A stretch of 64,000 nucleotides of DNA from a bacterium (GCA_031411135.1 JANOAN010000003.1:10614-74613), one strand, 5' to 3'. Positions 54,957-59,091 are shown, counted from the stretch's first letter. Program-made: numbers and translations. Notes: generated by a model from the letters alone, not told the origin.

Positions 54957-55778
54957 ATGGCAAAGAAAATTTTGACTAACATAAAACAAAAACCTCACTT
55001 CTCTCACAGGGATTTTGTTCTGTATCTTGGCAATTCAACCGATATCCTCAATGAGCTTCCAGAAAATTCCATAGATATGATTTTTGCAGATCCTCCATAC
55101 ATGCTTTCAAACGGAGGATTCACTGTTCATGCAGGAAAGATGGTAAGTGTTGATAAAGGAGACTGGGACAAAAGCAAAGGATTTGATAGCGACTACTCAT
55201 TTCATAGAAAATGGCTAGAGGCCTGCTATCGAGTCCTCAAACCCCAAGGAACCATTTGGGTTAGTGGAACATATCATTCAATCTATCAATGTGGTCACGC
55301 TATTCAGTCTATCGGTTTTCATATTCTCAATGATATAAGTTGGTTCAAGCCGAACGCTTCGCCGAATTTAAGCTGTAGGTTTTTTACAGCCAGTCACGAG
55401 ACATTGCTCTGGGCTAGGAAACATAAAAAAGCAAAGCACACGTTCAATTATGAATTGATGAAAGGTGGAGAATGGTCTGAAGATTTTATTAAAAAACCAA
55501 ATCTACAGATGCGTTCTGTATGGGCAATTAATCCACCCAAAAAAGAAGAGAAAAAATTTACCAAGCATCCGACACAAAAACCACTTTCACTTCTAGAGAG
55601 GATTGTTCTCGCAAGTACAAACAAAGGAGATATAATCCTTGATCCTTTTACCGGTAGTTCCACAACAGGAATCGCTGCTAAAAAACACGGACGAAAGTTT
55701 ATCGGTATTGATACTGAGGAGAAATACTTAGCTCTTTCTCAAAAACGCTTTCAAGATTTAGTCGAGGCTGGTAATTGA
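54957..55778 (+). CDS. beta-class N6A/N4C DNA methyltransferase
   Basis: Motif IV IFADPPY lies near the N-terminus and motif I DPFTGSSTTG near the C-terminus, which is the beta permutation. Confidence 0.85.
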   Translation: MAKKILTNIKQKPHFSHRDFVLYLGNSTDILNELPENSIDMIFADPPYMLSNGGFTVHAGKMVSVDKGDWDKSKGFDSDYSFHRKWLEACYRVLKPQGTIWVSGTYHSIYQCGHAIQSIGFHILNDISWFKPNASPNLSCRFFTASHETLLWARKHKKAKHTFNYELMKGGEWSEDFIKKPNLQMRSVWAINPPKKEEKKFTKHPTQKPLSLLERIVLASTNKGDIILDPFTGSSTTGIAAKKHGRKFIGIDTEEKYLALSQKRFQDLVEAGN

Positions 55779-56616
55779 CTATTACTACTTCGGATATCTT
55801 TCCTCTCTTGTCAGATTTTGAATTAATCATTCGGCTAGCATATACAGGAATCTGCTTATAGCCAGAATATATTTCCTTAATGAATGGTGCACTAGAATTA
55901 CTAAGCATTACATATACGCCCTTTTTATCTAGCTCGATAAATAAATCTCTAAGCTTTATTTGATCATCCTTAGAGAAACTATCTTTACTATAACTTGTAA
56001 ATGATGATGTCTCTGATAAAGGATGGTACGGGGGGTCGAAGTATACAAAGTCTCCAGCCTTAGCATTTTTCACAGCATCAGCAAAGGATCCACTAGTAAT
56101 TTTTGTATGAGAAAGCATCTCAGATACAAGTTTTAGGTTTTCTTCGTCCACAATCTTTGGATTCGTATAGCTTCCCATAGGAACATTAAATCCACCCTTT
56201 GAGTTTTCTCTATAGACACCATTGAAGGCTGTCTTGTTTAGAAAAAGAAAGTATAGACTCTTTTTGAAATCGTCAGCAGGGAGTGAATTATACTTTTCTC
56301 TGATTGAGTAATAAAACTCTTTTCTTTCTTCTGTATTTTTTGATATAAAATCTTTCTCAATTTTTCTTAAAGACTTAATCAATTCGCCAACATTATCTTT
56401 GATGTTTTTATAGGTTTGAACTAGAGTCTTGTTCACATCGTTTATGTGAGCCTTCTTTGGATTCAATGCAAAGAATACCGCACCTCCACCGATAAACGGT
56501 TCAAAATACGAATTGTACTTTTGGGGAAAGAGAGCATCTAACTGTGTCAAAAGCTGGGTCTTACCCCCAACCCATTTAAGGAACGGCTTAGCTTTCTTAG
56601 AAATATCTATCTTCAT
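55699..56616 (-). CDS. Dam-family (alpha-class) DNA adenine methyltransferase
   Basis: LKWVGGKTQLL, motif I FEPFIGGGAVFF and motif IV YFDPPY, in alpha order. Its 3' end overlaps the convergent methyltransferase gene by 80 nt. Confidence 0.85.
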   Translation of the reverse strand: MKIDISKKAKPFLKWVGGKTQLLTQLDALFPQKYNSYFEPFIGGGAVFFALNPKKAHINDVNKTLVQTYKNIKDNVGELIKSLRKIEKDFISKNTEERKEFYYSIREKYNSLPADDFKKSLYFLFLNKTAFNGVYRENSKGGFNVPMGSYTNPKIVDEENLKLVSEMLSHTKITSGSFADAVKNAKAGDFVYFDPPYHPLSETSSFTSYSKDSFSKDDQIKLRDLFIELDKKGVYVMLSNSSAPFIKEIYSGYKQIPVYASRMINSKSDKRGKISEVVIVNYQPRLNLESVFEKELSISPQYQYR

Positions 56617-56696
56617 GTATTGATTTTATCATTTTTTGATACCGATTCCTATCTTTCATTGTTCTAAGCCCTATTTTGTGATTTAATTGCATTATT

Positions 56697-57230
56697 ATGA
56701 AAGTCGGAGGTATCGGAGGAACAAACACAAAGTCGGGGCTACACTTTGAAGGAAAGGTGGATTTTCTCGAGGCCCTCAAAATAGTAAAGGGCTATGAAAT
56801 AAAGGATGACGGGTCTATCCTTTTCGAAGGTAAGGTTGTAGCTCTCAATCTCCGAAAATACAAGCTCTACGAATTTCTAGAAAGTAAAGGTGTTAATCAC
56901 AAAGAAATACTTTCAAAACGTCTTCTCCCTGATGATGCTATCTTGGTACTCAACACGAATTCATTTTACGTAATTGAAATTAAATTCCAACAGGTTGCTG
57001 GTTCTGTGGACGAAAAATTGCAGACATGCCATTTCAAAAAGAGACAGTACGAAAAATTGATGAATTCACTCGGTGTAAAAGTGGAATATATCTACATCTT
57101 AAGTGACTGGTTCCAAGCTCCTGCGTACAAGGATGTTCTCGCTTACATTAAAGAGGTTGATTGCGATTATTTCTTCGAAGAAATAACTCTAAACCGTCTC
57201 GGGCTCCCATCTCCAACAGAGACTATCTAA
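56697..57230 (+). CDS. small PD-(D/E)XK nuclease-like protein, candidate restriction endonuclease
   Basis: LLPDDAILVLNTNSFYVIEIKFQQ gives PD...x13...E-I-K. Divergently paired with the Dam-like methyltransferase, 80 nt apart. Confidence 0.45.
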   Translation: MKVGGIGGTNTKSGLHFEGKVDFLEALKIVKGYEIKDDGSILFEGKVVALNLRKYKLYEFLESKGVNHKEILSKRLLPDDAILVLNTNSFYVIEIKFQQVAGSVDEKLQTCHFKKRQYEKLMNSLGVKVEYIYILSDWFQAPAYKDVLAYIKEVDCDYFFEEITLNRLGLPSPTETI

Positions 57231-57846
57231 ATCCTGGCATTGCTGATTGAAGTACTTCTGTATAGTGTTTCTTGTCGTCGATATAATCTCTAAGCGTAAG
57301 TAGTAGGTTTTTAAACATATAAGCCTCGGTATAAATCTTTTCATTCTTGCAGAAAAGTTCAATCATTATCGCAACGTAATCTAAAGACAGGGTGTAATCC
57401 TGCTCAATGTGTGCATACTTTTGTGTAATCTCATCAACGGTTTCAAGTTTATAGTTATTCCTATCTTCAACCGATGCGAAAGGCGTAGTTCTCTCATAAA
57501 AATCAATGTAGTACTGAACTATCTCTCGAACGTCTTTGCGATACTGAGGGATTTTCAGAAGAAGATCGACAACCCAAAATGTATGAGTCGGCGGTGTCAT
57601 TATTTTGTTCACTCCTGGCACGAGAATTTTTACTACGAAATCAATATCTGGTCTTGCACCTCTACTTCCTTGAAATAGACCAATCAAAGTTCCGTCTTTT
57701 GTGACATATGTCTTAAAAGCAGTTAGACGAGGTCTCAGTTGAGCGAGATTAGTTCCATCATAATATCTAGAGTTGTATTCGTGTGACATTACAGAAAGTA
57801 TAGCAAAAGCTAGGCTGTTGGTAACTAGAGCTTCGCAACCCTCCAT
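57223..57846 (-). CDS. hypothetical protein (last cargo gene of the cassette)
   Basis: A 207 aa ORF with no recognised family. It has a 285 nt upstream region carrying repeat module C. Confidence 0.45.
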   Translation of the reverse strand: MEGCEALVTNSLAFAILSVMSHEYNSRYYDGTNLAQLRPRLTAFKTYVTKDGTLIGLFQGSRGARPDIDFVVKILVPGVNKIMTPPTHTFWVVDLLLKIPQYRKDVREIVQYYIDFYERTTPFASVEDRNNYKLETVDEITQKYAHIEQDYTLSLDYVAIMIELFCKNEKIYTEAYMFKNLLLTLRDYIDDKKHYTEVLQSAMPGFR

Positions 57847-57951
57847 ATCTAAGCTAAGGTACAGACAGATACCTCAGTTTTTGGTATCATGGTAATCACA
57901 ACAAAGACCTAACCCCTAGAAAACCCTTAGTTTCCTAGGATATGGTCGTAA

Positions 57952-58131
57952 TAAAAACCGCTACAGTATAGAAGACTCCTCGTCAGAGTCACTGTAGCGG
58001 TCGCGTCTAGGAAACTGGATGTGGGTTGAGCCGAAAGGTTCGATCACAATGGCGAGGGGTCTTCTGTCTCAAGGCTCAAAACTCCTCGCCACTTATTATT
58101 AGTTAATAAGCTTAAACCGCTACAGTGGCTT
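57952..58131. promoter_or_regulatory. structured intergenic element with three mutually exclusive 11-nt pairing segments
   Basis: ACCGCTACAGT at 57957..57967 and again at 58116..58126, with its exact complement ACTGTAGCGGT at 57991..58001. Also an internal GAGCC-GAAA-GGUUC hairpin (58028..58041), GGCGAGG/CCUCGCC (58051..57 / 58084..90) and TTGAGCC/GGCTCAA (58026..32 / 58073..79). The strand of action is unresolved. Confidence 0.4.
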
Positions 58132-59091
58132 ATGAAAAATCAAATAAGGCGTATTCCGCCATCTGGCTACTTAATTGTAGTTCTGTTTCTAGTAACTTTA
58201 ATATTTCCAAAACACGCAAATGCAACATCAGGATCATGCTCATACCACGGAGGTGTCGCATGTAGTCTCAGGTCGGATTATGACGGCAGTGTAATTTGCA
58301 ACGACGGATGGAAAGATAGTTCAGTATCATTTTCAAATGCAGATGAGTGCAAAACATCCTTACCGTCATGCCCCTTACCTTCAGGTGCGAAATCTGATTG
58401 TGGCTCACTCCGTGCACAACTTGCACGAGGACAGTTGCTCGGCACTACGTTTGGAGACAATGAGCTAGCTCAGTGCGATGCTCAGAATACAACCTACGAT
58501 TCTGCCCAGTCTGCATATCAACAATGTCTTACTTCGCAGTCAGCAATACAATCTCAACAATTTAATAACTACGTGGATCAAAGTAAAACTCAAGATCAGG
58601 CTTTTAATCAGCAGATGCAGACCAAGTACGACGCATACTGTGTTTCATCACAAGGTGTAGGAAGTGTCTGGGTTGGCGAATTCGGTCCGAACGGATCATG
58701 TAAACCAACTAATTCTGATTTCTGGAAATCGTGTCAGGGAAAAATGGGTACAAATGCAACGTACGATAAATCTTCGGGGTATTGTACTTGTTATAGCGGA
58801 TACGTTGTAGATGGAGACAATCAATGTGTAACAGAAGTTCAGCCAAGCATCCAAACTCCAGATGTTCCACAGACACAACCTGTTGTCACTACTCCCATAC
58901 AAAAAGTAATTGCAGTAAAAAAGCCGATAACTAAACCGACCGTCGTTCCAGTCGTATCTGAACAATCTACTACAACCATAGCTCAACCCATTGTCACAGA
59001 TACTCCTACCGTCAAACCTATTGAAGATAAAAGCTGGTTTGGTTCACTGTTTGAAAAAATAGGAAGCTTCTTTACTAATCTATTCCACTAA
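58132..59091 (+). CDS. secreted cysteine-rich protein with a T/P/V-rich C-terminal linker
   Basis: Signal peptide (LIVVLFLVTLIFPKHANA), about 16 Cys in the mature N-terminal half, and a Q/S-rich middle. Confidence 0.6.
   Translation: MKNQIRRIPPSGYLIVVLFLVTLIFPKHANATSGSCSYHGGVACSLRSDYDGSVICNDGWKDSSVSFSNADECKTSLPSCPLPSGAKSDCGSLRAQLARGQLLGTTFGDNELAQCDAQNTTYDSAQSAYQQCLTSQSAIQSQQFNNYVDQSKTQDQAFNQQMQTKYDAYCVSSQGVGSVWVGEFGPNGSCKPTNSDFWKSCQGKMGTNATYDKSSGYCTCYSGYVVDGDNQCVTEVQPSIQTPDVPQTQPVVTTPIQKVIAVKKPITKPTVVPVVSEQSTTTIAQPIVTDTPTVKPIEDKSWFGSLFEKIGSFFTNLFH

Follow-up and report, generated by a model that had tools for sequence, protein, structure and literature searches.

A LOOT-family RNA with two competing long-range pairings next to a start codon: a proposed multi-state leader

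In a 64,000-nucleotide stretch of bacterial DNA (GCA_031411135.1 JANOAN010000003.1:10614-74613; the whole of it is called the window here, and positions are counted from its first letter), an intergenic region carries three 11-nt segments, two of them identical and the third complementary to both. The locus raises the question of whether these segments belong to an RNA, on which strand such an RNA would be made, and what an exchange of pairing partners might do to the open reading frame (ORF) that starts at 58132. A first-pass annotation made from the sequence alone had placed the element at 57952-58131 and described it as riboswitch- or attenuator-like. The follow-up analysis reported here identifies it as a new member of LOOT, a known but uncharacterised RNA family, and we lean slightly towards reading it as a plus-strand, cis-acting, multi-state leader, a conformational switch that would hide or free the start of the ORF at 58132.

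Positions 57906-58045 of the plus strand match LOOT (RF03000) in a scan with Rfam covariance models, with 52.7 bits against a gathering threshold of 46.4; the match is full-length (model positions 1-121 of 121) and has E = 4.5e-7 for the whole window. Over 57700-58300 the scan returned nothing else credible at E <= 10: mir-23, trpB, whalefall-1 and RSV appear at that level, all far under threshold, and known aptamer families give no match even at that level. The 11-bp helix noticed in the first-pass annotation forms the outer stem of P2, the long LOOT hairpin, and the GNRA-capped hairpin GAGCC-GAAA-GGUUC, present at 58028-58041, belongs to the final stem of the family, P4. Neither the LOOT identity nor the full extent had been recognised. 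The element starts with P1 at 57906, at least 46 nt 5' of the annotated start, and conserved RNA reaches 58127-58130. The conserved RNA therefore continues ~85 nt past the end of the Rfam model at P4, and this extension holds the segments B', P5 and A2.

LOOT is a metagenome-derived family taken from the Weinberg/Breaker alignments (2017 intergenic-region survey) and added in Rfam 14 (PMC7779021). Two additional covarying pairs were reported for it in Rfam 15 (PMC11701678), and 28 'cross-covariations' in the CaCoFold paper (PMC7657543); its Rfam type is Gene; sRNA. In the searchable literature the family is named only, with no function, host or alternative fold found described, and as far as these sources go the extended structure and the switch model presented here are new. 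The parts of the element referred to below are the following.

57906..57947, plus strand: LOOT P1 domain, with a GACC/GGTC closing stem, a conserved internal loop CCUAAC ... UAUGG and an inner hairpin (Rfam alignment).
57957..57967, plus strand: A1, 5' arm of P2, first copy of ACCGCTACAGT.
57968..57985, plus strand: B1, loop side of P2, pairing locally (GACTC with GAGTC at 57986-90) or at long range with B' (18 bp).
57987..58001 (core ACTGTAGCGGT, 57991-58001), plus strand: A', the shared complement, partner of A1 (11 bp) or A2 (15 bp).
58002-58023, plus strand: LOOT P3, with a GAAA loop (Rfam alignment), 95% paired, with double changes in 7 of 8 pairs.
58024-58045, plus strand: LOOT P4, with a GAAA loop (Rfam alignment), the GNRA hairpin named above.
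58050..58067, plus strand: B', partner of B1 (long range) or of B2 (local hairpin P5), beyond the Rfam model.
58078..58091, plus strand: B2, a near-copy of B1 (AAAACTCCTCGCCA), 3' arm of P5, including the GGCGAGG/CCUCGCC helix.
58092..58110, plus strand: small A/U-rich hairpin CTTATTA/TAATAAG, found only in the closest LOOT relatives of the window.
58114..58130 (core 58116-58126), plus strand: A2, the second copy of A1, which pairs with A' and ends 1 nt 5' of the start codon.
58132..59091, plus strand: downstream ORF, the presumed regulated gene, 319 aa, Cys-rich, with a signal-peptide-like N-terminus and no Pfam match.

Comparisons were made among 17 distinct LOOT sequences, the window included; the other 16 also pass the Rfam threshold. 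A search with the protein encoded to the left of the element gave 26 genome loci, nearly all labelled as metagenome-assembled genomes (MAGs) of the Patescibacteria group (candidate phyla radiation, CPR), and 72 metagenome loci, and the same 16 of these 98 loci contain LOOT by Rfam, by motif scan and by our own covariance model, R1. Five further LOOTs (L113, L124, L182, L188 and L246) were obtained from two sub-family pattern scans of IMG/VR viral contigs, which returned ~236 loci, mostly chance and 5 real; generic patterns were judged too unspecific for scans of the whole collection. The hosts are Patescibacteria MAGs and mobile-element-like IMG/VR contigs, the window itself coming from a candidate-phyla bacterium. 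By eye, the neighbours of LOOT on the viral contigs include ParB-like methylase, terminase-like, serine recombinase and HsdR-like genes.

The LOOT core is well preserved in this set. The P1 motif GACCUAAC...UAUGGUC (57906-57947) is invariant in the alignments of 12 and of 17 sequences, and P1 pairing amounts to 92-94% in the LOOT alignments, with compensatory changes present. The inner stem of P2, the GACTC/GAGTC helix of the annotation, is present, with 5 bp here versus 8 bp in the Rfam consensus, and is flagged as non-canonical in the alignment.

The three pairing partners were found exactly as annotated, ACCGCTACAGT at 57957-57967 and 58116-58126 and its exact complement ACTGTAGCGGT at 57991-58001. 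The direct repeat is in fact 13 nt long (AAACCGCTACAGT, 57955-67 and 58114-26), the repeats bound a 159-nt segment, and the distal pairing comprises 15 bp, 57987-58001 with 58116-58130, one G.U pair included. With at most one mismatch, the 11-mer has 4 matches in the window against 0.44 expected, a count given by 0 of 100 shuffles, and all three exact matches fall inside this element.

A downstream copy of the 5' arm of P2, that is A2, is found in 13 of the 17 LOOT loci. It belongs to six sequence classes (CCGCTACAGT, CCTAGTAGAG, CCCGCTAGAG, CCGTCCAAAGT, CCTGTCTAA and CACAGGACAT), and in each class the copy fits only its own hairpin, giving a block-diagonal cross-locus matrix. The observed length of the copy is reached by 0-7 of 2000 shuffles in 11 of the 13 loci; the weakest copy is that of L182, reached by 28 of 2000. 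Because the variable P2 arms are out of register in MAFFT alignments, A1:A' and A':A2 were tested on a synthetic arm alignment together with the cross-locus matrix. In the arm alignment A1:A' is 92.4% paired, with double changes at all 12 tested pairs, although percent-paired values are inflated here because the alignment was registered on the helices, and the matrix is therefore the cleaner control. The covariation score is 1.14 for A1:A' (0.23 shuffled) and 0.81 for A':A2 (0.21 shuffled). The three 11-nt elements are thus conserved and co-vary in relatives that carry A2.

A2 sits at the translation start: in 12 of the 13 loci that carry it, 0-6 nt separate its end from the start codon, and in L002, where the GTG start falls within the A':A2 helix, the distance is up to 14 nt. 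Complementarity between the start region (-25 to +12) and A', or B' in L003, is found in 14 of the 17 loci (z = -2.5 to -8.2). Six-class covariation and the placement of A2 at the start codon support the plus-strand reading of the annotation, in which the complement can pair with either copy at the translation start. At L188:3380-3431 (minus strand) there are two downstream copies of a hairpin arm, CCGTCCAAA 4 nt before the ATG and TCCGTCCAA from 3 nt after it, which thus bracket the start codon.

Identical ends of the 159-nt segment and an internal guide complementary to both would also be expected of a self-processing or processing-guided RNA, in which A' would align A1 and A2, the segment between them would be removed by cleavage, ligation or a nuclease and a short mRNA leader would be left. 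The ornate, strongly structured core with its GNRA loops is like that of many ribozymes, and the 15- and 18-bp helices of this element could serve as RNase III-type substrates. However, Rfam ribozyme families show no similarity even at E <= 10, the conserved P1 lies beyond the repeats, and none of the fetched loci shows a 'processed' form with P1 immediately before A and the ATG. A2 is moreover lacking in four members, and processing of this kind appears quite improbable.

A second pairing, absent from both the Rfam model and the annotation, connects P2 to the extension. The 18-bp long-range helix B1:B' (57968-57985 with 58050-58067) was picked as a consensus helix by RNAalifold among 12 sequences; among 17 sequences its 18 pairs are 96% paired with both-side changes in 12, a level matched by 0 of 500 shuffles, while slid controls give 36-47%. 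Three of its columns are mostly G.U (UG 17/17, UG 12/17 and GU 10/17), and five loci outside the building of R1 score 96-135 bits with that model. B' can alternatively pair with B2 in the local hairpin P5 (58050-58091), which competes with B1:B' and contains the annotated 7-bp helix GGCGAGG/CCTCGCC. The UUGAGCC/GGCUCAA pair that the annotation set against the GNRA hairpin exists in the window without being conserved in the 16 other LOOT RNAs, and is probably a chance pairing. No linker separates B1 from A1, and 5 nt separate it from A'; from this geometry we infer that a complete B1:B' helix of 18 bp and a closed A1:A' stem exclude each other.

The two exchanges are predicted to be nearly balanced. 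The plus-strand RNA from 57900 to 58135 folds at -95.8 kcal/mol (z = -9.0). In most members the forced A1:A', B1:B' and A':A2 folds lie within 0-7 kcal/mol of each other, and the unconstrained minimum free energy (MFE) fold chooses different states in different members. For the window, A':A2 with B':B2 gives -96.1 kcal/mol and A1:A' with B':B2 gives -93.4 kcal/mol; the nested MFE fold is the closed multi-branch structure in which A':A2 encloses P3, P4 and P5. The naive sum for B1:B' with A':A2 is lowest in 7 of 8 members, with no pseudoknot penalty counted. Folding of successively longer prefixes of the window RNA predicts the following series, in which the partner changes at each step.

Prefix ending after A': A1:A'.
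Prefix ending after B': B1:B'.
Prefix ending after B2: A1:A' with B':B2.
Prefix ending after A2: A':A2 with B':B2.

In L026 and L029, both poor in A2, the MFE fold pairs the conserved P1 CAUGG with CCAUG or UCAUG at the start codon, a pairing that occurs in the MFE of these two only, not in that of the window or of most members, and that may be due to chance; it was not retained.

All 17 loci have a co-oriented ORF, the start of which lies 26-63 nt beyond B'. No terminator-like site (a G+C-rich hairpin with a U-tract) is present on either strand over 57700-58300, and no U-run follows P5 or A':A2 in the window or its relatives. LOOT is argued to be a leader on these grounds, that is, the lack of a terminator, the nearby ORF in every locus and the abutment of A2 on the start codon, and LOOT and the ORF would then share one transcript. 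The transcript may instead be a stand-alone structured noncoding RNA, with A':A2 as the closing stem of a mature multi-branched fold and the ORF close by only because the genomes are compact, and co-transcribed by read-through. Classification as an sRNA gene in Rfam agrees with this, as does the nested MFE of the window, which is precisely such a closed multi-branch structure; LOOT has its own promoter-like site, the module is exchanged independently of the ORF, the downstream genes are mutually unrelated, and four members lack A2. Yet there is no terminator or other 3'-end signal between LOOT and the ORF, and with A2 ending 0-6 nt from the start codon there is no room for a separate ORF promoter. 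By eye no internal -10 box is conserved; TAnnnT boxes between P5 and A2 occur in the window and L001 and were rejected as an internal promoter for that reason. A closing stem also leaves unexplained why the competing A1:A' helix is universally conserved and co-varying, and why the two folds are balanced in energy with neither dominant. A stand-alone RNA is considered unlikely.

The translation context bears on how a leader might act. Only 7 of the 46 ORFs of at least 150 aa in the whole window have a Shine-Dalgarno-like motif; most have very short leaders, and in many a TAnnnT box lies 8-15 nt before the start codon, which suggests that translation in this organism is mostly leaderless or short-leader and Shine-Dalgarno-independent. 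A structured leader of 235 nt is therefore exceptional here, and because the genome is mostly without Shine-Dalgarno sequences, ribosomes probably need a start region free of structure to initiate.

The genes that follow LOOT often encode nucleases or surface proteins, or are defence- or phage-associated. They encode Cys-rich secreted proteins in the window, L001 and L020; a membrane-anchored SNase in L083 (Pfam) and, by homology, in L031; VRR_NUC in L188, T5orf172 in L028 and Ltp, a superinfection-exclusion-type lipoprotein, in L026 (all Pfam). The protein of L003 is a DUF5655 protein with weak NucS_C/SduA_C matches (NucS/Shedu-like), and those of L182 and L246, without a Pfam match, share an N-terminus that resembles it by eye. 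Nuclease or nuclease-related genes accordingly follow 7 of the 17 LOOTs (L083, L188, L028 and L003, with L031, L182 and L246 added by eye), and the remaining genes encode Ltp, the Cys-rich secreted proteins and small membrane proteins.

A comparison of close relatives indicates how the element moves. Against L001 the flanks of the window are 87% and 94% identical, whereas 57872-58127 is only 53% identical (L001:2290-2575); the same segment is 80% identical to viral contig L124:9660-9920, the flanks of which are unrelated. Recombination boundaries are thus placed at 57871/72 and 58127/58128. In this mosaic everything from the -10 box through A2 travels together, which assigns A2 to the RNA rather than to the ORF; over this span LOOT seems to undergo horizontal exchange as a cassette. 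Mosaicism on mobile-element-like contigs is also what might be expected if the 13-bp direct repeats acted as DNA, either as target sites duplicated by a small mobile element or as cassette recombination sites, and the repeat sequence does vary by locus, as target duplications do, with one repeat class preceding different ORFs. Target duplication does not explain an internal exact complement that co-varies with both copies, and G.U pairs occur both in the extended A':A2 helix and in the B1/B'/B2 set, where they make sense only for plus-strand RNA. Moreover, the boundaries at 57871/72 and 58127/28 lie outside A1 and not at both repeats, which leaves the DNA-level explanation highly improbable.

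Upstream of P1, two further features and a promoter-like site precede the element.

57816..57867, plus strand: conserved upstream module, comprising TGTTGGTAAC (57816-25), CTTCGCAA (57831-38), CTAAGCTA (57849-56) and a -35-like CAGACA (57862-67).
57868..57890, plus strand: palindrome P0, GATACC (57868-73) with GGTATC (57883-88), the 3' arm of which overlaps an extended -10-like TGgTATCAT (57885-90).

Together they make up a conserved module of ~75-95 nt that precedes P1 in 13 of 17 loci, among them viral-contig loci whose flanks are unrelated, and a pattern scan of the viral contigs for it returned LOOT loci only, plus 3 chance matches. RNAalifold finds no helix within 57816-57867, where conservation is of sequence only. 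The arms of P0 vary between loci yet remain complementary, and P0 is the sole structure supported in this module, which is probably promoter or operator DNA or else an unpaired 5' extension of the RNA. A sigma-54 promoter was considered for it and rejected, as by eye the spacing does not fit. The promoter-like site at 57862-57890 reads CAGACA-17-TATCAT with an upstream TG, from which a transcription start near 57897 is predicted, uncertain in so far as the upstream module may itself be a 5' extension of the RNA. In 14 of 17 loci a TAnnAT -10-like box precedes P1 by 15-27 nt; L003, L006 and L028 show none in that range.

Read on the minus strand, the 11-bp helix is followed by UUUUUAUU, which in the annotation's alternative reading would make it an intrinsic terminator or attenuator acting on the gene at 57223-57846 from within its leader. 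A hairpin followed by TTTTTATT is indeed present on that strand, and the minus-strand fold is better than shuffles (z = -4.5). This proposal fares worst of all and is given next to no probability. The Rfam match is specific to the plus strand, the terminator scan was negative, and the G.U pairs of P4 and of B1:B' would be A.C mismatches there. The linker between P1 and P2, AAAAa in the Rfam consensus, accounts for the A-run before A1; this conserved linker is kept wherever LOOT lies, even where the neighbour gene is absent or differently oriented. Homologues of the left-hand protein (ORF 57223-57846, minus strand) have 188-191 aa, at 70-98% identity across Patescibacteria, and the gene is therefore taken to encode 188 aa from a start at 57789 rather than 207 aa. 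A TG-extended -10-like box ends 8 nt upstream of its ATG, so that its mRNA would be near-leaderless and begin downstream of the hairpin, without LOOT.

The 188-aa protein has no Pfam, PDB-sequence or significant PDB-fold match; its AlphaFold model is confident, with a predicted local distance difference test score (pLDDT) of 88.6, and has N-terminal beta strands and a helical bundle. A functional link between this gene and LOOT was rejected: LOOT is near it in 16 of 98 loci, and since the gene is missing from the five viral-contig loci, the association is clade synteny only. A cluster resembling a restriction-modification system adjoins the locus at 54957-57230, with an N6_N4 DNA methylase at 54957-55778, a D12 (Dam-class) methylase at 55699-56616 (minus strand) that is convergent and overlapping with it, and a 177-aa protein at 56697-57230 with a weak PD-(D/E)XK match.

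How the proposed leader might work can be outlined as follows. Its own promoter at ~57862-57890 would drive plus-strand transcription of LOOT as a ~235-nt 5' leader of the ORF at 58132. Two shared segments would have two partners each, A' pairing with A1 or A2 and B' with B1 or B2, and the folds would interconvert in vivo. In an open state, A1:A' and B':B2 would form beside the P1/P3/P4 core, A2 and the start codon would be unpaired, and ribosomes could load. In a closed state, A':A2 would lock 15 nt reaching to within 1 nt of the AUG and initiation would be blocked; B':B2 or the 18-bp B1:B' would accompany this state, and by removing B1 from P2, B' could help A2 to capture A'. A trigger would shift the balance by stabilising the P1-P2-P3-P4 core, candidates being a ligand, a protein, temperature or the kinetics of transcription, and the output would presumably be translation. 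The features expected of a riboswitch are found in part: a structured 5' untranslated domain with a promoter-like site upstream and a co-oriented ORF downstream everywhere, on what is presumably a continuous transcript, and mutually exclusive pairings, A1:A' versus A':A2 and B1:B' versus B':B2, which are covariation-supported and nearly equal in energy. The description as riboswitch-like therefore stands for the exclusive pairing and the putative leader position; binding of a ligand would be what makes it a riboswitch proper.

Several observations weigh against this interpretation. A2 is absent from 4 of the 17 LOOTs (L003, L004, L028 and L029), two of which, L028 and L029, show zero complementarity to the start region, and start-site masking therefore cannot be the function of the whole family. 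Rfam files LOOT as a stand-alone sRNA, and the genes downstream of it are a mixed set, whereas classical riboswitches control coherent regulons. The transcript ends are predictions, the exclusion of B1:B' by A1:A' is a matter of geometry (0-nt and 5-nt linkers, an 18-bp helix) rather than of computation, and the arm alignment used for A1:A' and A':A2 was registered on the helices themselves. The sample is biased as well: a single neighbouring protein led to 12 of the 17 loci, and all fall into one Patescibacteria-related group.

A broader proposal, possible but held only tentatively, is that LOOT, rather than being a free-standing sRNA, represents a class of cis-acting riboregulators not recognised before, perhaps orphan riboswitches, in Patescibacteria (CPR) and their mobile elements, in which a double strand-exchange toggle would gate the translation of swappable accessory genes. 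If so, a sensor core would gate nuclease, superinfection-exclusion-like and surface-protein genes in organisms that are largely Shine-Dalgarno-free. The 17 loci give the family a host group, Patescibacteria and mobile-element-like contigs, and a consistent putative role as an accessory-gene leader, while the ~85 nt of conserved RNA beyond the Rfam model come with a mechanism that can be tested by mutation of defined switching helices; the extended model can also be used for re-annotating the family. Confirmation would provide a rare case of RNA-based gene control in candidate-phyla bacteria and an example of start-site masking in largely Shine-Dalgarno-free translation.

Compared with LOOT as defined in RF03000, the element has the same P1 with its CCUAA...AUGG loop, the same long hairpin P2 and the same tetraloop hairpins P3 and P4. 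The difference is that the Rfam model ends at P4, whereas here the RNA extends ~85 nt to the start codon and includes an 18-bp long-range helix that competes with P2. The three-state add adenine riboswitch of Vibrio vulnificus has a translational ON/OFF expression platform. The masked segment of LOOT, in contrast to platforms of the add type, is not a Shine-Dalgarno sequence, its regulon is not coherent, a ligand is only hypothetical and a quarter of its members are without the masking copy; LOOT also has two coupled toggles, A and B, rather than one. What the two share is that the 3' strand of the sensor helix can take a downstream mimic of the 5' strand at the region where ribosomes load, and that several states are nearly isoenergetic, as predicted here. 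Chains of alternative hairpins are also known from the trp leader (1:2, 2:3 and 3:4) and from hok mRNA, which refolds through its tac, fbi, ucb and dcb elements. Unlike these, LOOT is without a leader peptide, a terminator U-tract or an antisense partner gene, and unlike the product of hok, the proteins encoded downstream of LOOT are not toxins as far as Pfam shows. In the trp leader and hok, as in the prefix folds of LOOT, each new segment can take the partner of an earlier helix, and in hok a long-range pairing locks the translation start, as is proposed here for A':A2.

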